Assembly (NCBI GenBank): GCA_965649105.1
Contig: CBFGJP010000001.1
Coordinates: forward strand, 14,464-78,463
Direction of reading: 5' to 3'
DNA from: a candidate division WOR-3 bacterium
GTDB lineage: Bacteria; Hydrothermota; Tepidihabitantia; SM23-42; JAOAFX01
DNA: 64,000 nt
Part shown: positions 1,998 to 47,219 of the stretch, piece by piece
Position numbering within the stretch: the stretch's first letter is position 1
How the letters are laid out: every line of letters starts with the position of its first letter
The notes under the pieces: generated by a model
The model's input: only the letters and a program-made list of their open reading frames with translations
Told to the model about the DNA's origin: nothing
Database searches by the model: none
Program-made: the position numbers and the translations under genes

Positions 1998-2513
1998 TCA
2001 ATATTCAACGAGGGAAAATATTTCATAATCTCTTAGTTTCTCGGTGCCGCTGAGATAGGTTAAATTGGCAATGAAGGCGCAGGCAATCACCTTACCACCG
2101 AGGGTCTCCACAAGTTTGCACGCCGCAAGCATCGTGCCACCGGTCGCAAGAACATCATCAAAAAGCAATACCCTCTCTCCTTTTTCTATTCCATCTTTAT
2201 GTATCTCAATGGTATTCTTCCCGTATTCTAATTCATATTCCATTTTTACGGTCTCTGCAGGCAGTTTGCCGAGTTTGCGCACCGGCACAATACCACAGCC
2301 AAGGTTATATGCAATAGCACCACCAAAGATATAACCCCTTGCCTCAATGGAAACAACCTTATCAATCTTTGCATCTTTGTATTTATTAACAATCGTATCA
2401 ATGGAGTATTTAAACGCCTCCGGATCTTTCAATATTGTTGTTATATCACGAAACATAACTCCTTTTTGGGGAAAGTCAGGGATATCGCGGATAAATCTCT
2501 TAAGTTCCATCAA
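1998..2513 (-). CDS. apt: adenine phosphoribosyltransferase
   Basis: 171 aa. PRTase motif VLLFDDVLATGGT. Typical Apt N-terminus (LKRFIRDIPDFPQKGVMFRDIT). Confidence 0.85.
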   Translation of the reverse strand: MMELKRFIRDIPDFPQKGVMFRDITTILKDPEAFKYSIDTIVNKYKDAKIDKVVSIEARGYIFGGAIAYNLGCGIVPVRKLGKLPAETVKMEYELEYGKNTIEIHKDGIEKGERVLLFDDVLATGGTMLAACKLVETLGGKVIACAFIANLTYLSGTEKLRDYEIFSLVEY

Positions 2514-12174: not shown

Positions 12175-14310
12175 TTACACTTTGTCAATCCGTAATGAGA
12201 GTTGAAATAATCCGAGACCCACGATAAAATTCAGGATTATAAATAAAACAGAAGTATATAATATCCCAAGTATTGGGATGAAAATCAAGGCAGTAATCAA
12301 TGCCCCGAAACTTGCGCCCAAAAGATCAATCCCATAAAGGATACCCGACTTTTTTTCAAAAAATATGTCTATTACCAATGGGAAATGTAAACCATTTAAA
12401 AATCCCCCGGCTAATAAAAGAATGGCAATGATATAATTTATAAACTCCACCTTCGTAAAAGTACAAATAAAAATTATTAAAAAATAAATGCCTATGGTTA
12501 TTTGAATAGTCGATAAAAAGTTCAGCTTTTTCTGAAGGGTATCTATTTTTCTAAATATTCTCATCTTAATAAAAAACAAAGTTCCCATTGCAAGTCCCAG
12601 CATGAATAAACCTATAATAATACCTATCCAGTTATAAACATATCCATAAAATACTTGAAAGAGAATCAAAAGTACTATCTCAGATGAAATGCCTGCGACA
12701 CCGGTGGTAAATATTGAGAGATAAATAAGCGTTTTGCGATACCAGCAGAAAAGAATGGGAATCAATATTAATAAAAATAAACCCGGATGCATATTGAAGA
12801 GTTTTAAAAATAATTTTTTAACAAATCCTGAAGAAATACTACCCCATAGTAGCACATTGAAATAATAACATACAGGCTTTAAATCGTTGTTAATATAAGA
12901 CTTCGTTCTTTCGATACACTGCTTTATATATCCAATTTTTTCCTCAGTAAGATTGTAATCAAAAAAATAGTTATTTACGTAAAGAAGATTAAGATTTCTG
13001 TCCCTGATATTTTTCTTCAAAATTTCTCTAATTCCAACTTCAATTTCGTAGTCCAGTCCAATATATGTGGCTTTTGATAACGGTAATACATAAACTTTTT
13101 TGAAAACCCTTTCCAATGTATTCTTGATTGTGCCTAAAAATTGGCTATAAATCGGGCTGAAAATATCCGGTGTATAATTGACTCTAATACAGAATATCCC
13201 ACCCTGATTAAGCCTGCCTTTAGATTCCTGGAAGAATTCTAATGTATAATATCTATTAAGATTTGCATTTACCGGATCAGGCAGATTAATAATAATACAA
13301 TCAAATTTTTCTTTGGTATTTTTGATATAGTATCGACCATCGCCGATAATTACATTTAATCTATTATCAAAAATTTGAGAACCAATAAATTTTTTTGAGA
13401 TTTCAATAATCTTGGGATCGAGTTCCAGATAATTCAATTTCTGAATCGATGGATGTTTGAAAATCTCTTGTATGCCACCACCCAAACCACCGCCAATAAG
13501 CAGAACACTTTCAGGATTCTTGTGGATTAACAGCGGATAATGAACCGCCTCTTCCGAGGCATAAAAATCAGGGTACGCAAAGTCAAAAACGCCGTTTGAA
13601 TAAAAGTTGATCTGATCATCCGATTTTGTTAATGTGATATTTCCGTATTTTGATTCAAAGACACCAATAATATTTTGCCCCGGCATCTGCACTTTTTTTA
13701 ACTTAAACTCTATCGAGTTTATAGCCAGAAATAAAAATAAGGGAAGCACGGACAATAACAGGTAAATCTTTTTTCTAATACATAAATAACTGGCGAATAT
13801 TAATAACGAAATGAGCAAAATAAAGATACCCGATGGGGGGATGAAAGATAATAAAACGAAGGATAATATAATACCACCAAAAACAGCACCAAAACTTTCA
13901 AAAAAATACACCCTTTGTGGTCTTATAATTTCAGTAGCAGCAGGAAATAGGGCACCAAAGATGATACAGAGTGGACAAAGCGTAATAAACGCAATAATTA
14001 TTATCTTGTATAAATCAATAACCTCACCAAAGTTTATAGAGAAGATCGCAGGGGCATTCCTTATGAATATAAAAGAGCATACCAAAAACAGTGCGGTTAA
14101 AAAAATAAGATTTGCATAATTTCGCGCCGGGTTATCTCTTAAATTCAATTTTGAATATATGAAACTTCCCAACCCGGTCAACAAAAGCCAGAGAAATAGC
14201 ACAATACCTGAAATCAATTCATTGCCCGAAAAAAATGCGAGCATTTCGCGGATGATCATTGTTTGACTCATAACTGCCGCCATACCCGATATAAAAATTG
14301 CAATGTGCAC
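12175..14310 (-). CDS. fused polytopic-membrane / spermidine-synthase-like (polyamine aminopropyltransferase family) protein
   Basis: 711 aa. Multiple TM helices at both ends. Central PABS-like domain (LLIGGGLGGGIQEI...LELDPKII...GDGRYYI...DCIIINLPDP). Confidence 0.6.
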   Translation of the reverse strand: MHIAIFISGMAAVMSQTMIIREMLAFFSGNELISGIVLFLWLLLTGLGSFIYSKLNLRDNPARNYANLIFLTALFLVCSFIFIRNAPAIFSINFGEVIDLYKIIIIAFITLCPLCIIFGALFPAATEIIRPQRVYFFESFGAVFGGIILSFVLLSFIPPSGIFILLISLLIFASYLCIRKKIYLLLSVLPLFLFLAINSIEFKLKKVQMPGQNIIGVFESKYGNITLTKSDDQINFYSNGVFDFAYPDFYASEEAVHYPLLIHKNPESVLLIGGGLGGGIQEIFKHPSIQKLNYLELDPKIIEISKKFIGSQIFDNRLNVIIGDGRYYIKNTKEKFDCIIINLPDPVNANLNRYYTLEFFQESKGRLNQGGIFCIRVNYTPDIFSPIYSQFLGTIKNTLERVFKKVYVLPLSKATYIGLDYEIEVGIREILKKNIRDRNLNLLYVNNYFFDYNLTEEKIGYIKQCIERTKSYINNDLKPVCYYFNVLLWGSISSGFVKKLFLKLFNMHPGLFLLILIPILFCWYRKTLIYLSIFTTGVAGISSEIVLLILFQVFYGYVYNWIGIIIGLFMLGLAMGTLFFIKMRIFRKIDTLQKKLNFLSTIQITIGIYFLIIFICTFTKVEFINYIIAILLLAGGFLNGLHFPLVIDIFFEKKSGILYGIDLLGASFGALITALIFIPILGILYTSVLFIILNFIVGLGLFQLSLRIDKV

Positions 14311-14353
14311 TGAAAAGTATAATTAAAATTTTTTGATTGGCAATAAGATTTTC

Positions 14354-14381
14354 TTGACTCTACATTTTTTTTGCGTAAAAT
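14354..14381 (+). promoter_or_regulatory. promoter TTGACT-N16-TAAAAT upstream of the glutaredoxin-like gene / lar region
   Basis: TTGACT 14354..14359, TAAAAT 14376..14381, followed by AAGGAGG RBS and ATG at 14400. Confidence 0.55.
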
Positions 14382-14399
14382 AAAAAACAAGGAGGCCCA

Positions 14400-14666
14400 A
14401 TGAAAAAAATTTATATTTTTGGTCGACAAACCTGTCAGGTTTGTAAGGATACCTATGAGAAATTTTGTTATTTTAAAGAAAAAAAGGGGTTTAAGGCACC
14501 GATTGAATATATTGATATGGATACGGTTGATGGTATGGCAGAGGGTGCATTTTATGAAGTCGCTGACATTCCAACAATTATTATATTTGAAAACGATCAA
14601 GAAATTGTGCGTTGGTCAAAAAAACCACCGGTCAGTGAAGAATTTCTACCGTATTTGTTAAAATAA
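14400..14666 (+). CDS. glutaredoxin/thioredoxin-fold protein (CxxC)
   Basis: 88 aa. CQVC redox motif near N-terminus. NrdH/glutaredoxin-like size. Confidence 0.5.
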   Translation: MKKIYIFGRQTCQVCKDTYEKFCYFKEKKGFKAPIEYIDMDTVDGMAEGAFYEVADIPTIIIFENDQEIVRWSKKPPVSEEFLPYLLK

Positions 14667-22886: not shown

Positions 22887-25322
22887 ATGGGTATATATTT
22901 GGTTCTATTTTTCTTGTCTGGTTTTTCTGCTTTGATTTATGAGATTACCTGGACAAGATTACTCTTGCTTGCATTTGGTTCAACAACCTTAGCAAATGCC
23001 CTGGTCGTATCAGCATTTATGCTGGGACTTGGTCTTGGCGGATTATATTATGGTTCCTATGTCGATCGGGTCAACAATTCTAAGAAATTATTTTCATATC
23101 TGCAGTTAGGAATTGGCTTATCTTCCTTTTTATTACTGCTTCTCATTAATCAGTTACCAAATTTTTATAAAGGCATATCAAAAAATATACATTTAAACCC
23201 ATCAATTTCATCAACCATTATATTCATTTTAACCTTCGCAGTCTTATTTATTCCTACATTTTTAATGGGCGGGACATTTCCAGTAATTACAAAATGTTAT
23301 GTTCAGGATGAGAATAAAATCAAAAATGGAATAGGATTATTATACGGATTCAATACTTTCGGAGGTACGATTGGTGCATTATTAACCGGATTCTTTTTTA
23401 TCAGAACATTGGGGCTTTCTTCGACCCAGTTGATCGCAATTTTAATAAATTTAATAATCGGCATTTTGGTGTATCTTTTCATTGCAAAAATGTCAACGGA
23501 AAATAGAATTTCAAAAACTGTTCCCCAGGAATCAAAAAAAGATAATTTAAACAAAATAAAAAAATATATGCCACTCATTGCCGGGCTAACAGGGTTTGCT
23601 GGGCTTGCCTGTGAAATTTTATGGATTCGTGCATTATCAATATTCCTTATCAATTCCACCTACACCTTTACTATGATTATTATTGTCTTTCTGTCGGGAA
23701 TTTTTATCGGTAGTATTGTATTTACCAGATTATCAAAAAAATCAAATATCCATAATGTTTTTGCATTAGTGCAAATTCTGACAGGATTATATATCATAAC
23801 TGGCAGTTTATTTTTAAATAAACTACCAGCATTACTATTTTTGTTCTCTAGTATCTTTGAAATACCTACCCTTAGAATGTTCCTACCCGCATTACTTCTT
23901 TCTTGGGTTATAGTCTTTGTACCCGCAATATTTATGGGGATAAGTTTTCCGCTAATTTGTTCTCTATACGAACAGAAAATACCGAACCTTGGTAACTATC
24001 TGGGTAATATTTATTTTTTCAATACAATTGGCAGTGCACTTGGTTCGCTAATTGCTGGTGTGCTCTTAATCCAATATATCGGAGTCATAAGGGGATTGGT
24101 AACTGTTGCTTTTATAAATTTACTGATTGGTTTCTTTTTTACGCTTTCTTTGAAGAAAAAATTTGTATATATCATTATTTTTGTTTGGGCAATCGCCAGC
24201 TTTTTTTATTCAATGCAAAATAAATTAATACTTCCGCCTTCCCTTTACCAGTCACCGAGCAGACAACACCGTGTTTTATTTTATCAAGAAACATTGGATG
24301 GGACTATAATTGTGAGTGAAGACCGTTCCACGGGCATAAGGTCCTGCTATGTAAATAACAGTGCGGTAATCGGCACAACCTATGATGCATTGAAGGTTGT
24401 AAAAATGCTCGGGCATCTTCCGTTCATATTCAATCCTGATGCAAAAGAGATATTGGTCATTGGTTTTGGAATTGGTATAACAACTTCAGCAATTGCACGG
24501 TATAATGTGAACCAAATAGATTGTGTTGAAATTTGTCCGGGCTTGCGTACAGCAGCAAAATATTTTGCAAATTTTAATAACTATATTTTTAATAATCCCG
24601 TAGTAAATTTTATTAACGCTGATGGCAGGAATTTTTTGCTATTAACAAAAAAAAGATACGATATCATTTCCTGCGACCCAACACATCCTATATTGGGAAG
24701 CGGAAGTCTTTATACTAAAGAGTTTTTCATATTGTGCAGGGAGCATCTATCGGATAATGGAGCAGTCTGTCAATATCTGCCCCTTCATAAACTGAGCCCG
24801 GATCAATTTAAATCTTTGATAAAAACCTTCGCTGATGTCTTCCCGCATACTTCAATCTGGCTTGGTTATTCGCATGGTATCCTTGTGGGCACAAATCATT
24901 CCCAAAAGATAATCTTTGAATCATTAAAAAATTTAAACGATGACCTGCTCAAAGATCCATATCTTCTTGCCGTCTCATATCTTCTTGATACAGAGGCAAT
25001 TAGACATTTCACCTCGGGTGCAAAGATAAATACCGATAACCAACCCAGGTTAGAATTTTTTACTCCCTTAAGTTTGAGGAATGAAAACTGGGAGCATAAT
25101 ATAAAATCAGTAATGGAACACAGAATTAGTATTGATAAAATCGTTATTGGCATTGAGGATTTAGAAAAATTGCAACGATATTTGCAGGGACAGAAGTATT
25201 TTATTGAAGGGCTCATATATCAAAACCGAAGAGACCGACAGTCAATGATCGAGGCGTTTAAAAAATCATTGGCAGTAAATCAAGAAAATAACGAAATAAG
25301 GCTATTACTTCAATCGCAATAA
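22887..25322 (+). CDS. fused polytopic-membrane / spermidine-synthase-like protein with C-terminal TPR region (paralog of 12175..14310)
   Basis: 811 aa. About 12 TM helices in the N-terminal half. PABS-like domain (ILVIGFGIGITTSAIA...IDCVEICP...FINADGRNF...DIISCDPTHP). TPR-like C-terminus. Confidence 0.6.
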   Translation: MGIYLVLFFLSGFSALIYEITWTRLLLLAFGSTTLANALVVSAFMLGLGLGGLYYGSYVDRVNNSKKLFSYLQLGIGLSSFLLLLLINQLPNFYKGISKNIHLNPSISSTIIFILTFAVLFIPTFLMGGTFPVITKCYVQDENKIKNGIGLLYGFNTFGGTIGALLTGFFFIRTLGLSSTQLIAILINLIIGILVYLFIAKMSTENRISKTVPQESKKDNLNKIKKYMPLIAGLTGFAGLACEILWIRALSIFLINSTYTFTMIIIVFLSGIFIGSIVFTRLSKKSNIHNVFALVQILTGLYIITGSLFLNKLPALLFLFSSIFEIPTLRMFLPALLLSWVIVFVPAIFMGISFPLICSLYEQKIPNLGNYLGNIYFFNTIGSALGSLIAGVLLIQYIGVIRGLVTVAFINLLIGFFFTLSLKKKFVYIIIFVWAIASFFYSMQNKLILPPSLYQSPSRQHRVLFYQETLDGTIIVSEDRSTGIRSCYVNNSAVIGTTYDALKVVKMLGHLPFIFNPDAKEILVIGFGIGITTSAIARYNVNQIDCVEICPGLRTAAKYFANFNNYIFNNPVVNFINADGRNFLLLTKKRYDIISCDPTHPILGSGSLYTKEFFILCREHLSDNGAVCQYLPLHKLSPDQFKSLIKTFADVFPHTSIWLGYSHGILVGTNHSQKIIFESLKNLNDDLLKDPYLLAVSYLLDTEAIRHFTSGAKINTDNQPRLEFFTPLSLRNENWEHNIKSVMEHRISIDKIVIGIEDLEKLQRYLQGQKYFIEGLIYQNRRDRQSMIEAFKKSLAVNQENNEIRLLLQSQ

Positions 25323-26891: not shown

Positions 26892-28062
26892 TTAACCAAA
26901 TATTATTAAAACAGCAATGCCAATAATTAAGGTTATTATCGTAAAAGGTAAACCGAGTTTTAAATATTCAAAAAATCCCACCCTTACGCCTTTTTTTCTG
27001 CTTATTCAAAAACAATTATATCGGCAACCAAACCAATGACCGTAAGATTTCCGGCAAGCGTTGAAGACATAGCCAGCGTAAGCCAAGCAATTTTAGAATT
27101 AACTAAGCCTGCAAAGAAATGCGAGAACAGGATCACAGCTGGCGTATTGCTTATGATATTAGATAAAACTGTGGAGCCCACCGTCAAATTAAAAATTTGG
27201 GAAAATTTACCATTGGAAAGATAAATTTTTACATATGCAAAGATTGATAAAGTAATACCTGATTTCTCCGCGCCCCGCATTACAATAAATAAACCGGCAA
27301 AGAATAGAAGCAACTGCCAGTCCATCTCTTCTAATACCTTTCTCGGCTTATTGACACCAAACAGAATTCGAAAACATGTAATGGTGATTGCGACATTCTG
27401 CGGGCTATAACCCAAACACAAAAAAATCAGCAGCAAAACCAAGTTTATAAATGATGCGATAAAAAGTCTTTTCGGAACAACGATTTTATTTTCATTAGAT
27501 TCAATTTTTATCTTTTTGCCTGCAAAATCATTGTGATAAACAAGGCGGATTAGTTAAAAATTTACCAATAATCCTATGATTGAAATCGATGAAAGGATTC
27601 TTAGAAACTCCAAAAAAGGAGTTTGGGGAATAAAGACCGATAAACATATTTTGTGGATTCCCGATGATCGTCATTGTGCTACCGATATTTGAAGAGGTTG
27701 CCAATGCAATTAGATAAGGAATCGGATTTAATTTGACTTTTCTCGTAATCTTTAAAACAATTGGTGTAAACAGCAGGGAAATGGTATCATTCATAAAGAG
27801 GCTGGCTGTAATTCCTGATAAAACTATTAGAAAAAACAAAAGCCCAGAAGCACTTTTTGCCCTGCGCAATATCCACCTTTCAACTGTTTCAAAAAAACCA
27901 GATAATTCTATCTACGCGATAATAATCATCATCCTTAGAATGAACAATATTATATCCAGGTCGATCGCTGCATATGCTTCTTTCAATGAAATAACACCAA
28001 AAAACCATCGCCACGGCCCCTAAAAGTGCACTTGCTGGTCTATTAATATGAATTCCTGGCAT
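26892..28062 (-). pseudogene. ArsB/NhaD-superfamily anion permease (CitMHS/YbiR-like) disrupted by multiple frameshifts
   Basis: Homologous segments lie in different frames. MPGIHINRPASALLGAVAMVF (from ATG 28062), GVISLKEAYAAIDLDIILF, ORF 27528..27869 (…IGSTMTIIGNPQNMFIG…), ORF 27002..27442 (…WQLLLFFAGLFIV…NLTVIGLVADIIV) and terminal GFFEYLKLGLPFTIITLIIGIAVLIIFG* (stop 26892). At least 5 frame changes, one at a T7 homopolymer (26991..26997). Confidence 0.7.
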
Positions 28063-28385
28063 ATTTGGGATGCCGATTACAATATAGGTTATGGTAAATA
28101 TATACCTGGACTCATTCAGAAATTTTATCGTTGAAGATATGTTGATAAATAATATTTTCGTTGTGGTAATTATATTTTAAAAGTCACTTATAATGTATCC
28201 TGATTCCCTTTTTCTTTTCCCATCGTCCCACCAAGGATTGGTGCGGTGATGAAATAACTGAAAGAAAGCAGAAAAGAATGATGATTGGTGTTTTGAGAGA
28301 ACTTTCCTATCAAAGATGTCTATTAATTCAAATATTTTCAATTTGATTCTTCAAGAAAATGGAGTTTAGTCATTAATATATCGTA

Positions 28386-28413
28386 TTGACTCTGCCTTTT
28401 TTTTGCGTATAAT
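28386..28413 (+). promoter_or_regulatory. promoter TTGACT-N16-TATAAT for glnA (leaderless geometry)
   Basis: TTGACT 28386..28391, TATAAT 28408..28413. ATG at 28423, 9 nt after the -10 box, no SD. Confidence 0.55.
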
Positions 28414-28422
28414 TTAAAAAAT

Positions 28423-29772
28423 ATGAAAAAACAATATAATATAAGACAATTAAAAAAACAGTTGATCAAAGAGGAAATAAAATTCATTGATTTAAAGTAT
28501 TGCACACTTATCGGCACACTGAATCATATCACCATTCCAATTGAAAGATTTGAAGAAATAATTTCCGAAGGGGTTGGGGTGGACGGTTCAAGCCTGCCCG
28601 GTTACAAAGGGGTCCAAAAAGGTGATATGCTCTTGTTCCCGGATTTAAACACCCTTTTTATAGATCCATTTTTTGAAGATAAGACAGTTTCTTTTTTGTG
28701 CAGTGTTTATTTACCTGATAAATGGGTTCCTTACGAACGAGATTCAAGAAATATTGCCAAAAAAGCAACAAATTATTTAAAAAAAGTCCTCAATGCCCAG
28801 GCATTTTTTCAACCTGAACTTGAATTCTATGTTTTTGAAAAATGTACCTATGGCGAAGGACCTGGGTACGGGTATTATCGAATTGCATTTGCTGATGAGA
28901 TAGAAAATAAGATAAACTATCCAATAAGGTATAAAGGTGGATATCATATTGGTCCGCCGGAAGACCGTTACGCCAATCTGCGCAATGAAATGGTAAAAAT
29001 ACTCAATCAATGTGGAATTAAGGCAAAATATCATCACCATGAGGTAGGGGCAAAAGGGCAGCTGGAAATAGAGCTGTTAATGGAACCAATGTTGCAAGCC
29101 GCCGATAATCTATTTCTTTCAAAATATCTACTGAAATCTCTGGCACAAAGTCGGAATATCTATCTCACATTTATGCCCAAACCATTCATTGGTGAACCTG
29201 GAAATGGCCTTCATTTACATCAATATCTTGGCGAAAAAAATAGCTCACTATTTTATGATTCAAAATCCACGAACAATCTTAGTGAACTGTGTCTAAAATA
29301 TATCGGGGGAATTCTCCAGCATTCAAGGGCACTCTGTGCTTTTACAAATCCCAGCACAAATTCTTACAAAAGATTGATCCCCGGATTTGAGGCTCCAACC
29401 TATACTGATTTTGCCCTTGGAAGCAGAACATCCGCAATCCGTGTTCCCGCATATGTCAGGAACAAAAAAGAACTGGATATAGAATATCGTATTCCTGATG
29501 CAACAAGCAATCCATATCTTGCAATGAGTGCAGTCCTCCTTGCTGGACTTGATGGAATAGAAAATAATCTTAAACCAGATAAAAAAGAAAAATTACCTAC
29601 CAATTCCTATGAAGCAATAAACGCACTTAAGGAAGACCATAAATTCTTGCTAAAAGGCGAGGTATTTAATACCGATCTTATTGAACGATGGATTGAAGTA
29701 AAAACTAAAGAATTTGAAGAAGTCCATTTAAGGCCACACCCTTATGAGTTTAATCTCTATTTAGGAATATGA
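28423..29772 (+). CDS. glnA: glutamine synthetase family protein (type I-like)
   Basis: 449 aa. GS beta-grasp N-domain (GVDGSSLPGY). Catalytic domain motifs (HHHEVGAKGQLEI, RIPDATSNPYLAMSAVLLAGLDG). Confidence 0.75.
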   Translation: MKKQYNIRQLKKQLIKEEIKFIDLKYCTLIGTLNHITIPIERFEEIISEGVGVDGSSLPGYKGVQKGDMLLFPDLNTLFIDPFFEDKTVSFLCSVYLPDKWVPYERDSRNIAKKATNYLKKVLNAQAFFQPELEFYVFEKCTYGEGPGYGYYRIAFADEIENKINYPIRYKGGYHIGPPEDRYANLRNEMVKILNQCGIKAKYHHHEVGAKGQLEIELLMEPMLQAADNLFLSKYLLKSLAQSRNIYLTFMPKPFIGEPGNGLHLHQYLGEKNSSLFYDSKSTNNLSELCLKYIGGILQHSRALCAFTNPSTNSYKRLIPGFEAPTYTDFALGSRTSAIRVPAYVRNKKELDIEYRIPDATSNPYLAMSAVLLAGLDGIENNLKPDKKEKLPTNSYEAINALKEDHKFLLKGEVFNTDLIERWIEVKTKEFEEVHLRPHPYEFNLYLGI

Positions 29773-32255: not shown

Positions 32256-32271
32256 ATTTAATTTTTCAAAT

Positions 32272-32301
32272 AAAAAAGCCCCTTCATCAGAAGGGGCTTC
32301 T
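32272..32301. terminator. bidirectional rho-independent terminator between convergent lnt and the T9SS cargo gene
   Basis: A-tract, GCCCCTTC-ATCA-GAAGGGGC hairpin (32278..32297), then TTCT. Confidence 0.7.
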
Positions 32302-32323: not shown

Positions 32324-35300
32324 TTATTTTACCATTAGCACTTTATTTGTCATGCGCCGCCCCTCGGTATTCATCCGAATAAAATAGACACCGTTGGGCA
32401 ATTTTCGGTCATTATCATCAAATCCGTTCCAGATTGTCGTATACAACCCTTGCTCAACCCTTGTCTTGACTATAGTCTTTACCTGCTGTCCTGCAATATT
32501 ATATATTACAATCTCAACATCAGAAGTCTGTGGTATTCCATAATTTATCACTAATTTTTCTGAAAAAGAATTAGGCTGGGTTTCAAAAAAATATTGACTT
32601 ATTAAATCCTTATTTGCCTCATTTATGCCCACATTGAAGTCCAGAATAAAGTCATCAATGTATCACCACATTTCATTATTCGCACTGTAATGGAAGGCGA
32701 ATCGAACATCATTTTCACCCTGTACATAGGATGTTACATCCACGGACTTGTAACTTGAATCATCGGCATTAGAATAGAAATGAATTTGCTGCCAGGTCAA
32801 ACCATCATCGGTGCTCACGAGGACTCTACCCGAATCTAAACGGGTAGTTGCTAAATCATTGTAGTAATGCCAGTAATTGAGCGTATAGGTACTACTGTTG
32901 GTGCAATCAAAGCGCGGCGAAATAAGCCAATCATCATGGGTCTCAACCGGTGAAAAATATACCCTTGCCACGATCCGTGCTGGACTTGTTGAAGTATAAC
33001 GATGCCAGTCATTATTATCAGTAACGGGCGGTGTTTGCGAACCACCGTCAATTATATACCAGCCGCAGAACGGTGGCTCAGTGGAATTGTTCCAGAGTTC
33101 ATCAAAGTTTTTTGAGTATGGTGGGGTATGTGAATAAGGACATACTGTAATTACCCTAACGATTGTATCATTTTGAGGATTCTGGTCTCCTGACATTTTT
33201 GTCCCGAACCAGATTGTATTATCGCCCGCGGTCGTCGGGACAAATTGTTGAGTAAAGGAATAATTAGCAATCTGACTAATCTCAAGATAACCGGTCCAGT
33301 TTTCAAAAGTCGTATCGGCACCACCGGTCGCATAAAAAACCTGGAGTGATGTAACCGGATTAAACCCAAAATTCTTAATCGTAACGCTTACATTTATTGG
33401 TTTACCGATCACGAATGGCTTTGGTCCCATTGTCGCAGTAATGATTCCGGCATCATTGTTGTATGCCGTTGGTGCCGTGGTGTACGCTCGGACAGAATCT
33501 ATAAACATATTGTTTCCGTAACCACTCCGAGCACGGAATGCGAGATACAGATTACGGTTGGCAGGGAAGTCACCCACTTCTACATCATGGACATACCAGC
33601 CAGCAGTAGGATTGTATCTATGGAATGCGGCGACCGGTGTATAAAGAGTGTCATTATAAGAGAATTCAACGATGATTGAGTCCGGATTGCCCTGATTACC
33701 GGCGTCATGATACATATAGAAACGGAGCATAAGTTTTTTGTTCTGCGGTCCGATATTAATCCGATGGGTACGGAGCCGAACACCCGAGCCACTGCTCGCA
33801 TTATAAGAAGGATAACCCGCCATTGCATAACCTTCAAGTGGGGTACAGACTGGATTCGTCCCATTTGTATATCTAGCCCAGTTATATGTTCCGGCAAGGA
33901 TTATCCGCCACCAAGTCTCGGGCGTATTGCCCGGTGGTGAAAATGTAGCATTAGTCGGTGGGAATGGTATGGCATTAAAATTTGATGCCACCATTGTGCT
34001 TTCATCATAGACTTCAACATGGAGTTTTGTGGTATCATTGACCGGGTTATCATCACCGTATAGATTTGTATAGACATAAAGAGTGTTTATACCAAGAAAA
34101 TTCATTATTAGATGAATCTTCAGCGAATCGCATCCCCCTGGCGGCAATGTTCCAGAATAATTTGCAACACCACTAATTGGATTATTTTTGAAACTGTATT
34201 GAACCGGGAAGCCACTCTGCGGATTTGAACCCGAATTATATATGGTCACGACTAAGGTATCGTTTGCCATTCTTATTGAAGTAGGATTCTTTAACCGAAA
34301 ATAATATGTTCCAATATCATTCATTAGATCAACCTGTTCAATTTCCACGAGTGAACCGCCACCCGAAAGTACAATTTCCTGATTAAAATTTCGGAATCGG
34401 TTGATATCTCCGATAACCACCCCATAATCACTCTGAGATGTGACCGATTTTTGCAAACCCCTGATCCAGGCCGTGCCATTGGGTGCATACCAGAAGATAT
34501 AAGGTATTGCCGAGGTACTGGTTCCACCGCTCAGAACAAGCTCTGCATCAGGATTATCAGTTAATATATCGCCGATAGCAATGCAATTATCTGAGGAACC
34601 CCAGGTCGTAGTCCAGAACCAGGCAACCCCATACCAGGTTGCGCCGGTCCAGTTCCAGATCGAAACCTGATAAGTAGGTGTGCCATTCCAGTATAACTGC
34701 CAGAGTCGCGATGCACCAACCACATAGACCTCATTTCCCGAAATACTAGTTATATGCGATACCCCTGGCTGCGACTGTACCACCCAAAAGGATTCTCGTT
34801 GTATCCCAGGCCGAACCGCTCCATAGAACTCTCATTATTCCGCACTTGGAGAAGTCTGGGCAATATTGATATAAAAATCCCTGGTTGCGGGATTATTGTC
34901 GCCGTCTCCGAAGACAATATCATTTATTGCGCTATTCACCGAAAATGAATCGCGGTCTGCCCAGTTTGATCCATCCCATTCAAACCAGATAAGTCGATAA
35001 GGTGTGGCAGAATGGCCCGTAACAATATCGGTATATTCATCTCCATCCACATCCCCACCGCCACTCCATATGTGGTACTACCACTCGTAAATGAATAAGG
35101 TGTTTCAATACGAAAACCATTTTTGACAAAGCCCGTGCCCATCATGTCTGTAGCCATGACAAGAAATCTTGTCCCACCTGATTGGACCGTTATTATTCTC
35201 AAAGTATCATCCGTGCTTCCTTTGAAATATTTGCCATAGGCAACCTTTCTCGTCAAATTAGAAGTACTCCCGGTCCAAACCCGGTTGGAATCATATACTG

Positions 35301-35439
35301 GCGCCGGCAATCTCACTGATGTGCCGGCATCGTTTGCCCTTAGAATCTCTATATTCTGAATCGTTATATTCTCTTTTGCATATAATAGAATGAAAGAAGA
35401 AAACAGACATCCTATTAATAGTTTTTTGACTATCTTCAT
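32324..35439 (-). pseudogene. large secreted FG-GAP / MAM-like (choice-of-anchor) T9SS cargo protein, interrupted
   Basis: Fragments: 34936..35439 (signal peptide MKIVKKLLIGCLFSSFILLYA), frameshift near 35075 into the frame of 34835..35050 (FG-GAP GDVDGDEYTDIVTG), consecutive stops TAA TGA at 34832..34837, main body 32663..34783 (FG-GAP repeats, two MAM-like domains), in-frame TGA at 32663..32665, then T9SS CTD 32324..32632 in the same frame. Confidence 0.6.
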
Positions 35440-42476: not shown

Positions 42477-44231
42477 ATGAGCAATAAAAAAATACTTTCA
42501 GGAAATGAGGCGGTCGCAAGGGGTGCCTGGGAAGCAGGATGCCACTTTGCCGCTGCTTATCCGGGAACTCCATCTACAGAAATTTTAGAGAATATAATAA
42601 AATACCCGGAGATCTATACCGAATGGTCGGTAAATGAGAAAGTAGCGCTTGAAGTTTGTGCAGGCGCATCATTTGTTGGTGCGCGGGCTATCACGGCAAT
42701 GAAACATGTAGGTCTGAATGTTGCTGCCGATCCGATGTTTACCCTTGGATATACTGGAGTGACCGGTGGACTTGTTATTGTCACCTGTGATGACCCGGGA
42801 TTGTGGTCATCACAAAATGAACAGGATAACCGCCATTATGGAAGGCATGCCAAGATTCCTATTCTTGAACCTTCGGACTCAAATGAGGCAAAGATATTTG
42901 CAAAAATGGCATTTGATTTATCTGAGCAATTTGACAGTGTATTTCTCTTGAGGCTGACAACCCGTATTTCACACTCATCAGGCATTGTTGAATTTGGAGA
43001 ACGTCAAGAAGTTCCAGTAAAAGGCTACACAAAAAATATCAAAAAAAGGCTTGTTCTTCCTGCCCATGCTAGAATTCTCCATCAAGTTGTTGAAGAACGA
43101 TTAAAAAAACTTGCTGAATATTCTGAAAAGTTTCCTTATAATAGGATTGAATGGGGCGAGAAGAACCTTGGGATAATAAGTTCCGGGATTGCCTATATGT
43201 ATGCAAAAGAAGTCTTTCCCGATGCAAGTTTTTTGAAACTCTCATTCACATATCCCTTGCCAAGGAATTTAATCAAAAAATTCGCACGGAAGATGAAACA
43301 CTTACTTGTCATTGAAGAAGGTGACCCTATCCTTGAACAGGAAATTAAAGCAATGGGAATTAAGGTTATCGGTAAAGATAAAATTCCTTTGTGCGGTGAA
43401 CTCGATCCAACCGTGATAAAAAAGAGTTTCAATAAAAAAATTTATAAACCTCAATTGGAATTAAAAGATGTACCCGAAAGACCTCCGGTCCTTTGTCCTG
43501 GTTGTCCCGAAAGAGGTGTATTTTATGTTATTAATAAATTGAAACTCACCGCGACTGGAGATATCGGCTGTTATACCCTCGGTGCCCTGCCGCCATTAAA
43601 CGCAATGGATACCTGCATTTGTATGGGGGCATCGGTGACGAATGCACACGGAATGGATAAAGCCTTAAAAAAAGAGTTAAGCAAAAAACTTGTAGCAATC
43701 ATTGGTGACTCTACCTTCTTCCATATGGGTATCACTGGATTGATAAATGCGGTATACAATAAAGGAAATCTGCATCTGATAATTCTCGACAACTTAACCA
43801 CCGCAATGACCGGACATCAACCCCATCCGGGAACCGGAAGACTCGCTCGGGGTGAAGAAGGTAAAAGAATTCTACCAGAAGATGTTGCGCGTGGCTGTGG
43901 GGTTGAATTTGTCAGGGTTGTAGATCCAATGGATTTGAAACAAACAGAGCAGGCGATTAAAGATGCAATAAATTTTGAAGGCGTAACAGTCCTTGTATTT
44001 CGCAGCCCCTGCATATTTTTGAAAAAACCAAAACCCTATCTTGCGGTAGACCCAGAAAAATGCAATGGCTGTAAACTCTGCTTGAGATTGGGGTGCCCGG
44101 CAATTATCATTAAAAATATAGCATCAAAAGAAAAACCGGTGGCATATATTGAACCAACACTTTGTAACGGTTGTGATTTATGTCTTCAATTATGTCAGCA
44201 TGATGCGATATATCCGTCAAAAAAGGAATAA
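42477..44231 (+). CDS. iorA: indolepyruvate ferredoxin oxidoreductase subunit alpha
   Basis: 584 aa. TPP-dependent 2-oxoacid:ferredoxin oxidoreductase N-terminus. Two C-terminal 4Fe-4S motifs (CNGCKLCLRLGCP and CNGCDLCLQLCQ). Confidence 0.75.
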   Translation: MSNKKILSGNEAVARGAWEAGCHFAAAYPGTPSTEILENIIKYPEIYTEWSVNEKVALEVCAGASFVGARAITAMKHVGLNVAADPMFTLGYTGVTGGLVIVTCDDPGLWSSQNEQDNRHYGRHAKIPILEPSDSNEAKIFAKMAFDLSEQFDSVFLLRLTTRISHSSGIVEFGERQEVPVKGYTKNIKKRLVLPAHARILHQVVEERLKKLAEYSEKFPYNRIEWGEKNLGIISSGIAYMYAKEVFPDASFLKLSFTYPLPRNLIKKFARKMKHLLVIEEGDPILEQEIKAMGIKVIGKDKIPLCGELDPTVIKKSFNKKIYKPQLELKDVPERPPVLCPGCPERGVFYVINKLKLTATGDIGCYTLGALPPLNAMDTCICMGASVTNAHGMDKALKKELSKKLVAIIGDSTFFHMGITGLINAVYNKGNLHLIILDNLTTAMTGHQPHPGTGRLARGEEGKRILPEDVARGCGVEFVRVVDPMDLKQTEQAIKDAINFEGVTVLVFRSPCIFLKKPKPYLAVDPEKCNGCKLCLRLGCPAIIIKNIASKEKPVAYIEPTLCNGCDLCLQLCQHDAIYPSKKE

Positions 44232-44233
44232 AA

Positions 44234-44836
44234 ATGGAAAAAAATAAAAAAACGATTGAATCATCAAATAATAAAATTACCAGTATAATAATCTGCGGAG
44301 TTGGCGGTCAGGGTATATTGCTTTCCTCAGATATTCTTTGTACTGCGGCATTTCTGGCGGGATACGATGTAAAAAAAAGTGAAATACATGGAATGGCCCA
44401 GCGTGGCGGCAGTGTAATAACGCATGCACGATTTGGTAAAAAAGTATATTCACCACTCGTAGAAGAAGGCAGTGCTGATTTTATTCTGGCATTTGAAAAA
44501 CTGGAGGCATTGAGATACAGTTATTTTCTGAAAGAAAAAGGGATAATCATTTTGAATGACCTTGAAATTCCGCCCATGAGTGTACTTACCGGTGAAAGAA
44601 AATATCCTGAAGATTTAATTAATAAATTAAAAAGCATTGCTACTGTAAATTTAGTCCCCGCTCAGGATATTGCCTTGAGATTGGGTAATGTGCGCGTAGC
44701 CAATGTCGTACTTTTAGGCAGTATTGCGAAATTTTTGCATTTTCCTAAAGAAGTCTGGATTGAAGCAATAAAAGAAAATGTGAAACCACAATATCACGAT
44801 TTGAATATTAAGGCATTTGAGCAGGGATTACTTTGA
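44234..44836 (+). CDS. iorB: indolepyruvate ferredoxin oxidoreductase subunit beta
   Basis: 200 aa. IIICGVGGQGILLSS gamma-domain-like. Directly follows iorA. Confidence 0.7.
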   Translation: MEKNKKTIESSNNKITSIIICGVGGQGILLSSDILCTAAFLAGYDVKKSEIHGMAQRGGSVITHARFGKKVYSPLVEEGSADFILAFEKLEALRYSYFLKEKGIIILNDLEIPPMSVLTGERKYPEDLINKLKSIATVNLVPAQDIALRLGNVRVANVVLLGSIAKFLHFPKEVWIEAIKENVKPQYHDLNIKAFEQGLL

Positions 44837-44967
44837 TATTTGTTCGATCAGTTTTATCCCCAAGCGATTGCAGAATAAATCTTTAGCTCTGAACTTATTG
44901 CATTTATCCGATTACTTGTTTCTCTAATAATTCTTGACTTTATTAGCTTTATGGGTAGAATTATTTT

Positions 44968-45603
44968 ATGAAAGGAAGTAAAATGAACAAATTAATTATA
45001 TTCTCATTTACTTTGCTATTGATTACAGGAATTGCTCAGCCGCAAAACTTAGATAGTATCATTAACAAAACAATTGCCCATTATCAAAACCTTAATAGTT
45101 TTTACATAGAATTCTCCCAGAATTTCTGCGAAAAAAATTCTGGTATCTGTCAGAATTTTGATGGCACCGTATACTTTCTTAGACCCAATTATTTCCGTAT
45201 GGAAATAAAAGCACCCAAACAGATTTATGTCGGTGATAGTATCTCACTATGGATTTATCTTCCGGATAAAAAAAGGGCCATAAGGCAGCACTTTGGTGCC
45301 CAGATTCCGTTCGCGGTTAACCCTGATATTTTTCTCAAGGATTATAACCAAAGATTTAATGCCGAATTGAAAATAAACAAAAATTATGAAATAATTATGA
45401 CGCCCAAGGAAGATACCGAAATTTATAAAAAAATAATCGTCACGATTGACTCTCAAAAATACGAAATAATTGGAATCACCATTTTGGACGAAACCGATGC
45501 CGAGAATAAATTCATCTTCAAAAATATTCAGTTGAATAAAAAGATATCTAAAACATTATTTGAATTTAAACCACCTAAAGGGACTGAGGTCATTGAAGAT
45601 TAA
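44968..45603 (+). CDS. LolA-like outer-membrane lipoprotein carrier family protein
   Basis: Signal peptide. LolA-like size and beta-rich composition. Alternative ATG at 44983 has a better RBS (AAGGAAG). Confidence 0.45.
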   Translation: MKGSKMNKLIIFSFTLLLITGIAQPQNLDSIINKTIAHYQNLNSFYIEFSQNFCEKNSGICQNFDGTVYFLRPNYFRMEIKAPKQIYVGDSISLWIYLPDKKRAIRQHFGAQIPFAVNPDIFLKDYNQRFNAELKINKNYEIIMTPKEDTEIYKKIIVTIDSQKYEIIGITILDETDAENKFIFKNIQLNKKISKTLFEFKPPKGTEVIED

Positions 45604-45610
45604 ATTCTTA

Positions 45611-45991
45611 ATGGACAATAAGTGTTTTGCCTGTGGTACTGATAATCCCATCGGATTACATCTCGATATTCGTGAAAATCCAAATGGAGTGTATGCAAAG
45701 ATAAAACTAAGCCCGATATATCAAGGTTATCAGCAGGTGATACATGGCGGCATTGTTTCAACGATTCTTGACGAAATGGCAGTTTGGGCATCGTTCAAAA
45801 AAGGCAAAAAGGCTGTTACTGCCGAACTGAATGTGCGGATAAAAAAACCAATGCTTTCAGATACAGAATATATTGCTATCGGACGGGTGATAAATACAAA
45901 GTATAATCTCGTAATTGCGCAGGCAGAGATAAAAGACTCAAATGAAAAGGTTATTGCCTGTGCCGATTTGAAATTGATAGAGATTGATTAA
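45611..45991 (+). CDS. hotdog-fold acyl-CoA thioesterase (PaaI/YbgC-like)
   Basis: QQVIHGGIVSTILDEMAVWA motif. Start chosen at internal Met after the LolA-like stop. Confidence 0.6.
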   Translation: MDNKCFACGTDNPIGLHLDIRENPNGVYAKIKLSPIYQGYQQVIHGGIVSTILDEMAVWASFKKGKKAVTAELNVRIKKPMLSDTEYIAIGRVINTKYNLVIAQAEIKDSNEKVIACADLKLIEID

Positions 45992-47219
45992 GGTATATTT
46001 CATTTCGCTGGGCTGTCCCAAGAACCTTGTTGATTCAGAAAAGATAATGGGAACTTTGGAAAAAAACGGCGTAACACTCGGCTCCAGTCTGCAGGAAAGC
46101 GATATTGTCATAATCAATACTTGTGGATTTATAAGACCTGCCTTGAAAGAAACTGAGAGGGAAGTGGAAAAGAGTTTAAGATTTAATAATAATAAAGAGG
46201 TTTATGTATACGGTTGTGCGGTCAATCGAGCACGTGATTTTTTATCTAAAAAGTTTCCTGGAGTCAAAACCTGGTATTATATAACTGAAAGAAAAAAGCT
46301 TATTAAAGATATCCTAAAAAAGGTTCCAAAAACTGACGCAAGATTGTTGACAACATCAGGTTATGCTTATCTCAAGATCGCCGATGGGTGCTCAAATCAT
46401 TGTTCATATTGTACAATTCCTATGATCAAAGGAGAATTTAAAAGTTTAAATTTTAACGACCTCATCAATGAAGCAGCAGCGCTAGCAAAACTGGGCATAA
46501 AAGAGTTGATCCTCATTGCTCAGGATACAGCACGGTATGGCTTGGACTTGTATAATAAAAAAATGATTGTGCCACTTATAAGAGAACTCTCAAGATTAAA
46601 AGGAATTGAATGGATAAGGTTGTTATATGCCCATCCCAGATCATTGACTGATGAATTAATATCCGAGATAAAAAATAATCCGAAAGTCTGTAAATATCTT
46701 GACCTTCCAATTCAACATATCAATGACCGAATTCTTAAATTGATGAATCGTTATATCACAAAAAAAGAAATTTTAAGATTGATAAAAAAATTAAAGGGCA
46801 TAACCCTGCGTACAACAGTAATCGTTGGTTTTCCAACGGAAACTGATGAAGAATTTGATGAACTTTTTGATTTCTTGCAAAAAGGCTACTTTGATTGGCT
46901 CGGTGTTTTTAAATATTATCAGGAAAAAGATACACCCGCTGGTCTGTTAAAACAACTTCCATCTTATGTTGTCAATAAAAGATTTAATAAATTGATAAAA
47001 CTTCAGCAGAGAGTAATAAAATATAAGAACAGGCAAAGAATAAATAAATCTTTCAGGGTTCTTGTTCATCAAAAAAACAAGTATTTTATTGGACATACCG
47101 ATTTTGCCGCACCTGATATTGATGGGCAGATAATAATCAGACACGAAAATGTAGAATTGGGTAAATTTTATTGTCTTAAAATAAAAGACGCAAAAGGGGC
47201 TGACCTTTATGCCTATTGA
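45984..47219 (+). CDS. rimO: ribosomal protein S12 methylthiotransferase
   Basis: N-terminal LGCPKNLVDSE (RimO signature). Radical SAM CSYCTIPMIKG. TRAM domain. Confidence 0.75.
   Translation: MIKVYFISLGCPKNLVDSEKIMGTLEKNGVTLGSSLQESDIVIINTCGFIRPALKETEREVEKSLRFNNNKEVYVYGCAVNRARDFLSKKFPGVKTWYYITERKKLIKDILKKVPKTDARLLTTSGYAYLKIADGCSNHCSYCTIPMIKGEFKSLNFNDLINEAAALAKLGIKELILIAQDTARYGLDLYNKKMIVPLIRELSRLKGIEWIRLLYAHPRSLTDELISEIKNNPKVCKYLDLPIQHINDRILKLMNRYITKKEILRLIKKLKGITLRTTVIVGFPTETDEEFDELFDFLQKGYFDWLGVFKYYQEKDTPAGLLKQLPSYVVNKRFNKLIKLQQRVIKYKNRQRINKSFRVLVHQKNKYFIGHTDFAAPDIDGQIIIRHENVELGKFYCLKIKDAKGADLYAY

Follow-up and report, generated by a model that had tools for sequence, protein, structure and literature searches.

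A multiply disrupted gene for a predicted type IX secretion system cargo protein, probably a recent pseudogene, in a candidate division WOR-3 genome

We analyzed a 64,000-nt stretch of contig CBFGJP010000001.1 from a candidate division WOR-3 bacterium (the window). Its minus strand from 35439 to 32324 holds one collinear coding region that is broken into pieces of 167 aa, ~70 aa, 686-722 aa and 102-112 aa. The locus is very probably a genuine pseudogene of fairly recent origin, derived from a gene for a cell-surface protein specific to WOR-3. An ordinary dead gene, it once encoded a secreted surface protein of ~1080 residues and has been inactivated by four deletions together with a premature stop codon. 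We classify it as a pseudogene because intact single-gene orthologues occupy the syntenic position in related genomes, the five lesions are independent of each other, the flanks are lesion-free, and accelerated change is restricted to this lineage. The same observations bear out the first-pass annotation in its reading of the locus as a decaying accessory surface protein. After repair of the lesions, the translation is covered over 100% of its length by intact proteins with an E-value reported as 0.0, a match that, judged on the sequences, is far beyond chance. The intact family appears to be an uncharacterised surface protein, seemingly confined to WOR-3 in these searches.

Lesions and reading frames

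The positions that define the disrupted gene, with the basis of each in brackets, are as follows.

32324..35439, minus strand: whole pseudogene, the remnant of a ~1080-aa type IX secretion system (T9SS) cargo gene (frames, stops and intact homologues)
35053..35056, minus strand: lesion 1, 1-nt deletion in a G run, GGGG against GGGGG in the orthologue (DNA alignment)
34936..34938, minus strand: TGA closing the shifted 167-aa N-terminal ORF (frame reading)
between 34839 and 34840, minus strand: lesion 2, 1-nt deletion (orthologue GCAGCGATAATG, window GCGG-AATAATG)
34832..34837, minus strand: TAA-TGA 'double stop', which is ATA-ATG-AGA (I-M-R) read out of frame
between 34754 and 34755, minus strand: lesion 3, 11-nt deletion (the orthologue carries ATTGGTGATAT)
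between 34677 and 34678, minus strand: lesion 4, 111-nt (37-codon) in-frame deletion (DNA alignment, model of orthologue P0001)
32663..32665, minus strand: lesion 5, nonsense TGA, with TGG (Trp) in the orthologues (alignment with orthologues)
32271..32295, minus strand: terminator-like hairpin (stem 32295..32279) followed by a T run, CTTTTTTATT, between the convergent pseudogene and lnt (pattern match only)

Base-level DNA alignment sets the 3116 nt of the window copy against 3240 nt at the orthologous locus L001 (L001:8001-11240), with 76% nucleotide identity. The alignment contains exactly four gaps, of 1, 1, 11 and 111 nt, each of them a deletion in the window that together make its copy 124 nt shorter; a nonsense substitution is the remaining lesion. 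Four of the five lesions sit in the region of a predicted beta-propeller.

Reading from the ATG at 35439 gives a 167-aa ORF, closed by the TGA at 34938..34936. A second frame, running from 35077 to 32324, is open except for three stops (TAA at 34837..34835, TGA at 34834..34832 and TGA at 32665..32663). The frame change that the first-pass annotation had placed near 35075 is present, and its cause is the G missing at 35053..35056, where the shift falls within the motif VAVG/DVDGDEYTDIV (slash at the shift). Between lesions 2 and 3 the true frame is the third one, which reads IMRVLWSGSAWDTTRILLGGTVAARGIA in agreement with the orthologues. The consecutive TAA and TGA noticed earlier are thus there as letters but are not real stops: a pair of nonsense mutations is ruled out, since ATAATGA is misread between two deletions.

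Lesion 3 takes out the IGD motif of one propeller blade and brings reading back into the long frame. Lesion 4 strips three strands, that is, most of the next blade (residues ~259-295 of P0001); being in frame, it could in principle predate inactivation as a tolerated variant. These two larger deletions had been overlooked in the first inventory; the three disruptions that it did name are all present in the sequence. Lesion 5 had been proposed to be a TGG to TGA transition, and its TGA does align with the TGG codon of the orthologue motif EMYWYVDDF, whose Trp is nearly invariant among 26 family members. This TGA severs the sorting domain, as had been claimed, but not the sorting domain alone, as the second choice-of-anchor J domain also loses its last strand.

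A TGA opposite a conserved Trp is also what TGA-to-Trp reassignment would look like, and we therefore weighed whether the pieces are natively separate genes, or whether recoding of TGA (as Trp, Gly or Sec) or programmed frameshifting yields a full-length protein. Hardly any credence can be given to these schemes. More than 20 other ORFs in the window end in TGA, several of them in ATGA overlaps, and these include glnA, which matches its orthologue in length; this rules out TGA recoding, which had been considered unlikely from the outset. The plain deletions lie at three unrelated sites (one of them of 11 nt) and a further 37 codons are gone, losses that no recoding or frameshifting scheme repairs. 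Natively separate genes are ruled out by the syntenic orthologues, each of which is a single ORF of 1077-1085 aa at the same locus.

Orthologues, flanking genes and rates of change

The closest orthologue, P0001 (1079 aa), is a WOR-3 protein annotated as 'choice-of-anchor J domain-containing protein' from the metagenome-assembled genomes (MAGs) GCA_039802305.1 and GCA_039802225.1. Its protein identity to the window copy is 74% by BLASTP and 77% in a MAFFT alignment. The intact orthologues of 1077-1085 aa (P0001, P0003-P0005, L004 and L005) are 59-74% identical to the repaired translation and span 98-100% of it. At loci L001 and L002 a 1079-aa ORF lies between a 317-aa gene and lnt, and the genes at L004 (1077 aa) and L005 (1084 aa) are intact with lnt adjoining. 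Synteny with L001 is exact, with the 317-aa gene, TP_methylase, CDP-OH_P_transf and HflX on one side and Lnt, GFO_IDH and GlnA on the other. In length, these seven flanking genes (~16 kb) equal or nearly equal their L001 counterparts, and their frames are undisrupted. If one or two disruptions per ~57 kb of coding sequence elsewhere in the window are assumed, the chance of at least four within 3.1 kb is about 4e-7 to 5e-6.

Values of dN/dS against the closest orthologue were unusable, as dS was saturated or undefined for most of the flanking genes, and we used codon-position divergence and relative-rate counts instead. Divergence from L001 at the three codon positions is 0.156, 0.111 and 0.451, which shows that purifying selection acted through most of the history of the gene. 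In a relative-rate test with L004 and L005 as outgroups, 61 amino-acid changes are unique to the window copy and 29 to L001 (binomial p = 0.001). The corresponding counts for the flanks are 20 vs 16 for Lnt and 12 vs 19 for the 317-aa gene (together 32 vs 35; Fisher p = 0.014). Constraint is thus relaxed on the lesion-carrying lineage, with amino-acid change faster, though only about twofold, in this gene alone. Counts by codon position on the separate branches are not decisive, the excess (59 vs 36) being limited to first positions. At 79 family-invariant columns the window copy deviates seven times, and intact members deviate at 0-2.

The main competing explanation is that the gene is truly intact and that consensus errors, mixed strains or misassembly of the propeller repeats have broken it in the assembly, which we regard as unlikely. 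The source is a MAG contig from the only assembly of this population on record, lesion 1 lies in a homopolymer G run and is a change that could arise from sequencing or consensus errors, and the propeller is internally repetitive; the two 1-nt deletions may be assembly errors. However, all five lesions, of four kinds, fall inside one 3.1-kb gene while ~16 kb of flanks are intact, just one other broken gene occurs across the 64-kb window, and the window is free of Ns. Read errors do not typically take the form of 11-nt and 111-nt deletions or of a G-to-A nonsense change, and indel errors would not be expected to produce gene-specific acceleration of amino-acid change. Repeat-mediated assembly collapse behind the 111-nt deletion is unsupported, since the longest word shared by its borders in the orthologue is 6 nt, too short for k-mer collapse. 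In an exact cluster look-up, three ORF products of the locus were each found once, all on a single 103,531-bp NCBI contig. Neither this look-up nor searches of species-representative genomes and JGI metagenomes yielded a closer relative or a second assembly of this population.

The window contains a second multi-lesion pseudogene, of a CitMHS-family transporter, at about 27002..28150, and gene decay thus occurs in this genome. A synteny break was also observed nearby. The ORFs at 14268..14600 and 12175..14310 were considered as a third split gene and rejected, because no similarity was seen between the 110-aa ORF and the N-terminus of the paralogue, and the 711-aa protein aligns whole, as one unit. 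Taken together, the surface-protein pseudogene, the transporter pseudogene and the synteny break suggest that this WOR-3 lineage is, to some extent, still losing and rearranging genes.

Domain architecture and predicted loss of function

From N- to C-terminus, the intact protein of ~1080 aa consists of a Sec signal peptide, a seven-bladed FG-GAP / integrin-alpha-like beta-propeller, an Ig-like (CARDB-like) sandwich, a first choice-of-anchor J domain, a second Ig-like domain, a second choice-of-anchor J domain and a T9SS type A sorting domain; nothing recognisable as a catalytic domain was seen in it. The following parts were located in the window copy.

35374..35439, minus strand: putative N-terminal signal peptide, MKIVKKLLIGCLFSSFILLYAK (basic N-region followed by a hydrophobic core, read from the sequence)
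34334..35307, minus strand: remnant of the seven-bladed FG-GAP / integrin-alpha-like beta-propeller (sub-cut-off Pfam matches, P0001 model, Foldseek)
32648..33118, minus strand: second choice-of-anchor J beta-sandwich domain (NF038128), with the TGA five residues ahead of its matched end
32336..32575, minus strand: T9SS type A C-terminal sorting domain, Por_Secre_tail / FlgD_ig-like (profile scores above cut-off)

The propeller is assigned mainly by structure, and its seven-bladed fold was assessed on a model of the orthologue P0001 and not on the damaged window copy. The Pfam profiles FG-GAP_3 and FG-GAP score below their gathering thresholds on the window copy (19 vs 26.9 bits and 15.5 vs 22.1 bits) and on P0001 (22.2 and 20.2 bits); only a ~1560-aa homologue, P0006, passes them (32.7 and 23.4 bits). 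The AlphaFold model of P0001 has a mean pLDDT of 81, exceeding 80 over most of residues 50-370, and shows a lone helix at residues 2-21 and about 29 strands across residues 29-410. Foldseek places integrin alpha chains at the top of its PDB matches (E about 9e-15). When PDB sequences were searched with a profile, only Fn3-like and FlgD-like matches came back, in the region specific to the longer homologues and in the tail, and these are uninformative on the main body of the protein.

NF038128 (choice-of-anchor J) matches the repaired translation in two stretches with 63.7 bits (cut-off 30), including residues 777-933, which cover profile positions 2-160 of 162. With the piece upstream of the TGA, the match drops to 51.4 bits and extends only to profile position 150; P0001 scores 66.2 bits. 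The 722-aa fragment scanned whole matched nothing in Pfam or NCBIfam, a result that is not trustworthy, as its C-terminal 178 aa alone give 51 bits with NF038128. The first-pass annotation had described two MAM-like beta-sandwich domains. Two such domains exist, but they are MAM-like by fold only: Pfam MAM (PF00629) matched neither the window pieces (E up to 0.1) nor P0001 (E up to 1), and a weak match was to Pfam Reelin_subrepeat-B. In our literature search, the name 'choice-of-anchor J' turned up only incidentally.

The T9SS C-terminal domain suggested by the first reading was recovered in the last 112 codons, whose residues 30-109, at the extreme C-terminus, match TIGR04183 (35.3 bits, cut-off 23) and PF18962 (30.4 bits, cut-off 27) above the curated cut-offs; PF13860 scores 39.4 bits (cut-off 27). 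Signal peptide and sorting domain stand on one polypeptide in P0001, but not in the window copy, where three frame disruptions and the TGA lie between them. Homologues of PorU, PorV, SprA and GldKLMN were absent from the ten window ORFs that were scanned, and our literature search found no papers on WOR-3 with T9SS.

Based on this architecture, we propose that the intact protein would be a ligand-binding or adhesive cargo, exported and attached to the cell surface by T9SS. In the window copy, translation from the native start would halt at 167 residues, after the signal peptide and about two blades, and the downstream ORF of 706 aa would lack a signal peptide. The TGG-to-TGA change would detach the sorting domain, and the propeller would be missing the greater part of one blade along with the Gly-Asp motif of the blade next to it. 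Because of these losses, no product is likely to be both exported and sorted.

It can be speculated that some function persists, with the 167-aa secreted piece or an internally initiated 706-aa protein being used, or with slippage in the G run (phase variation) restoring the frame in a subpopulation. The N-terminal ORF does retain its signal peptide and start context, and the rest of the protein sequence still shares about 77% identity with intact orthologues. However, such high identity is expected of a recent pseudogene, the 167-aa piece comprises only about two of seven blades, and the 706-aa ORF has neither a signal peptide nor a sorting domain. A run of four or five Gs is below the usual size of a contingency tract, and its repair would leave four more lesions. 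We thus consider a partly functional remnant very improbable and retain the assignment as a pseudogene. The ORF fragments should be merged in annotation as one pseudogene feature and not listed as proteins or T9SS cargo of this MAG. Functional work would be better directed at the intact orthologues than at the window copy.

Comparison with related genes and known systems

Another interrupted copy of the gene adjoins lnt in the WOR-3 MAG JZ-2_201709_bins_162 (JBDRWA010000063.1, locus L003), where the annotation lists its N-terminal part as hypothetical protein ABIL46_06020. Its lesion is different and independent: at positions 2160..2165 of L003, adjacent TAA and TAG codons replace Ser-Tyr in PLEGYAMAGYPSY, and the copy contains no frameshifts. 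This copy is sister to the intact L001 gene (86% protein identity) and not to the window copy. Independent knockouts in two hot-spring WOR-3 lineages may reflect recurrent selection for losing an exposed T9SS cargo, which a phage or predator might for example exploit as its receptor, and not neutral decay, although we view this idea as improbable. A tandem double stop in the otherwise intact L003 gene might fit a recent sweep of a null allele.

P0001 shares with the window copy the locus (between the 317-aa gene and lnt), the orientation and the domain order. In contrast to P0001, the window copy has four deletions and a TGA in place of a conserved TGG, and cannot encode the full protein. With T9SS type A cargo of Bacteroidota and the wider FCB group it has in common an N-terminal signal peptide and a C-terminal sorting domain that scores above cut-off; unlike in such cargo, its sorting domain shares an ORF with no cargo.

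In this family an integrin-alpha-like propeller occurs together with two choice-of-anchor J domains and a T9SS tail. Integrin alpha ectodomains and other FG-GAP proteins (4g1e_A, integrin alphaV; 9etn_A, CRTAC1) likewise carry Gly-Asp loop motifs in a seven-bladed propeller, with beta-sandwiches after it, and match the P0001 model in Foldseek with E about 1e-14. Sequence identity to these proteins is only 7-10%, so this is a likeness of fold and no evidence of integrin-like function. Both choice-of-anchor J domains resemble in fold the MAM and reelin-repeat sandwiches (2v5y, RPTPmu ectodomain; reelin 3a7q and 6a48), whereas the sequence family that fits them is NF038128 and not Pfam MAM.

Relatives and gene order of the locus

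We used the conceptual translation of the joined pieces of the T9SS cargo gene (window 35439..32324, minus strand) as the query for a protein search. This repaired translation matched 33 proteins. The best match is P0001, the closest intact orthologue (1079 aa, 74% identity, 100% of the query covered), named at NCBI 'choice-of-anchor J domain-containing protein [candidate division WOR-3 bacterium]'. P0003-P0005 (1080-1085 aa) share 59-61% identity over 98-100% of the query, and related proteins of ~1560 aa share 43-60%. This longer form (P0006-P0023, P0026-P0029; loci L006-L011, L014, L016, L017) is widespread in MAGs of WOR-3 and Candidatus Hydrothermia; in it, ~480 extra residues, including an Fn3-like segment, separate the second choice-of-anchor J domain from the T9SS tail. 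P0002, which matches at 100% identity (686 aa) and is encoded on a 103,531-bp NCBI contig, evidently represents the largest fragment of the window gene as called in the source assembly. In a collection of 15 billion proteins, each of the three fragment products occurs once, on the P0002 contig, and no second assembly of this population came up.

At L001, the locus of the P0001 gene, this gene is flanked by a 317-aa gene, TP_methylase, CDP-OH_P_transf and HflX on one side and by Lnt, GFO_IDH_MocA and GlnA on the other. The order around window 32324..35439 is exactly the same. Two more intact copies adjoin lnt in species-representative genomes (L004, 1077 aa; L005, 1084 aa). Therefore, the possibility that the window pieces are natively separate genes was rejected, as the relatives carry them as one gene at the same position.

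Beyond this block, the window differs from L001 in gene order (window 27869..28423 and 42477..47219 versus L001 13795..19240). The point of difference is marked by a remnant of a CitMHS/ArsB-family transporter that adjoins glnA in the window. In three-frame translation, this second pseudogene (~27002..28150, minus strand) falls into several pieces, with a number of frameshifts and stops; two of its ORFs match the Pfam CitMHS profile:

27528..27869, minus strand: transporter piece, profile positions 70-157
27002..27442, minus strand: transporter piece, profile positions 210-336

Immediately after glnA, L001 has two POR-family genes (586 and 202 aa), then LolA, 4HBT and a radical-SAM gene. ORFs of 584, 200, 211, 143 and 411 aa lie ~13 kb off in the window, at 42477..47219; matched to the L001 set by length and order only, they suggest that the two genomes differ by an inversion or rearrangement. 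Elsewhere in the window, 12175..14310 (minus strand) and 22887..25322 (plus strand) encode paralogous large membrane proteins (22% identity over ~520 residues). Both have a spermidine-synthase-like domain, and an MFS_1 region is also present in the 811-aa one.

Lesions in the window gene

Aligned globally at the DNA level, the window gene (3116 nt) and L001:8001-11240 (3240 nt) share 76% nucleotide identity and show exactly four gaps, every one of them in the window. Together with one nonsense codon, these lesions and the reading frames of the locus are as follows:

35439 (ATG) to 34938..34936 (TGA), minus strand: 167-aa ORF, starting with a signal-peptide-like segment
35077 to 32326..32324 (TAA), minus strand: second frame, broken only by TAA 34837..34835, TGA 34834..34832 and TGA 32665..32663
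35053..35056, minus strand: lesion 1, one G absent from a G run (GGGG versus GGGGG in L001)
between 34840 and 34839, minus strand: lesion 2, one base absent
between 34755 and 34754, minus strand: lesion 3, 11 bases absent (ATTGGTGATAT in the orthologue)
between 34678 and 34677, minus strand: lesion 4, 111 bases (37 codons) absent
32665..32663, minus strand: lesion 5, TGA for TGG of L001 (…GAA ATG TAC TGG TAT GTT GAC…)

Lesion 1 splits an FG-GAP-type motif between VAVG and DVDGDEYTDIV. The stretch from lesion 2 to lesion 3 is correctly read in the third frame, as IMRVLWSGSAWDTTRILLGGTVAARGIA, a close match to IMRVQWDGSAWDTARILLSGTVAARGIA of P0001. The Trp lost in lesion 5 is nearly invariant among the 26 family members compared. 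The plus strand opposite the gene has no ORF longer than 77 aa.

The frame change, the TAA-TGA pair and the single TGA thus sit where the first-pass annotation had placed them. The double stop at 34837..34832 is present as described, but it is an out-of-frame reading of ATA-ATG-AGA downstream of lesion 2 and no mutation itself. The native start would give only a 167-residue product, with the signal peptide and about two blades followed by out-of-frame residues; the product of the 706-aa ORF would have no signal peptide, and neither would the isolated sorting domain. We infer that no product of the locus would be both exported and sorted.

Recoding of TGA had been considered unlikely, and this holds: TGA terminates 24 of 60 tiled window ORFs; two of the 24 belong to the window pseudogene, leaving more than 20 others. 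Several of these terminators form ATGA stop-start overlaps, and glnA ends in TGA at a length equal to that of its orthologue. With TGA a regular stop and the frame changes plain deletions at unrelated sites, both recoding and programmed frameshifting are in practice excluded.

A broken orthologue, of which the intact L001 copy is the sister (86% protein identity), was also found at L003 (JBDRWA010000063.1, WOR-3 MAG JZ-2_201709_bins_162). Adjacent TAA TAG codons at 2160..2165 take the place of Ser-Tyr of PLEGYAMAGYPSY, with a Gly-to-Asp change three codons upstream, and the reading frame is otherwise preserved (ORFs of 585 and 469 aa). This lesion is independent of those in the window gene; a tandem double stop as the sole lesion is odd.

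Domains of the intact protein

The last 112 codons encode a T9SS type A sorting domain (TIGR04183, 35.3 bits, cut-off 23; PF18962, 30.4 bits, cut-off 27) and also match FlgD_ig (39.4 bits, cut-off 27). The choice-of-anchor J profile NF038128 matches the repaired translation in two stretches (63.7 bits, cut-off 30), the better one at residues 777-933 (profile positions 2-160 of 162). In the piece upstream of TGA 32665..32663 the match ends at profile position 150, thus the TGA costs the protein not only the linker and the sorting domain but also the last strand of this choice-of-anchor J domain. Scanned whole, the 722-aa fragment (32666..34831, minus strand) has no NCBIfam match at E up to 0.1, whereas its last 178 residues alone reach 51.4 bits with NF038128; a missing family match in a long fragment should therefore be read with caution here.

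Pfam MAM was not matched in the Pfam scan; FG-GAP and FG-GAP_3 are below cut-off in the window translation and P0001 and above it in the longer homologue P0006. The AlphaFold2 model of P0001, built on a 26-sequence alignment, is all-beta (mean pLDDT 81.2). Among solved structures, its best Foldseek matches are integrin alpha chains (E ~9e-15), CRTAC1, reelin repeats, the MAM-containing RPTPmu ectodomain and PorZ. Model and matches support a seven-bladed integrin-alpha-like propeller at the N terminus, with beta-sandwich domains after it. Mapped on the model, the 111-nt deletion takes out the strands at ~residues 260-293, most of one blade, and the 11-nt deletion the IGD motif of the preceding blade. 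We recognised no catalytic domain, and the intact protein is presumably a surface adhesin or ligand-binding protein.

Decay or sequence error

The breaks could in principle reflect assembly errors. However, none of the seven flanking genes is frame-disrupted relative to L001 (lengths within 0-10 residues, with differences at the ends), the window contains no Ns, and ~60 long ORFs tile it tightly. Besides the gene under study, only the transporter is visibly broken; a suspected third broken gene was rejected, not being a split gene. Assuming 1-2 disruptions per ~57 kb elsewhere, the chance of at least four in 3.1 kb would be ~4e-7 to 5e-6. Read errors do not typically produce 11- and 111-nt deletions or a nonsense transition, and the orthologue has no repeats longer than 6 nt at the borders of the 111-nt deletion, which argues against assembly collapse there. 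This evidence is indirect but points one way, to real decay rather than error.

Divergence from L001 at codon positions 1, 2 and 3 is 0.156, 0.111 and 0.451, therefore the gene was under purifying selection over most of its history; synonymous sites are saturated, which precluded an estimate of dN/dS. Polarised by the outgroups L004 and L005, 61 amino-acid changes are unique to the window lineage versus 29 to L001 (binomial p = 0.001), compared with 20 versus 16 in Lnt and 12 versus 19 in the 317-aa gene (Fisher p = 0.014 against these flanking genes). Of 79 columns that do not vary among the other family members, the window copy deviates at seven, four of them in the deleted blade, and intact members at 0-2. 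The gene thus shows signs of recent release from constraint, which by rough inference would cover ~10-20% of the time since the L001 split, if the constrained rate is ~1/10 of neutral.

Lesion clustering, intact flanks and relaxed constraint support the decaying accessory surface protein favoured by the first-pass annotation, with its details corrected. The window gene is an ordinary pseudogene of an already annotated, uncharacterised WOR-3 protein family.
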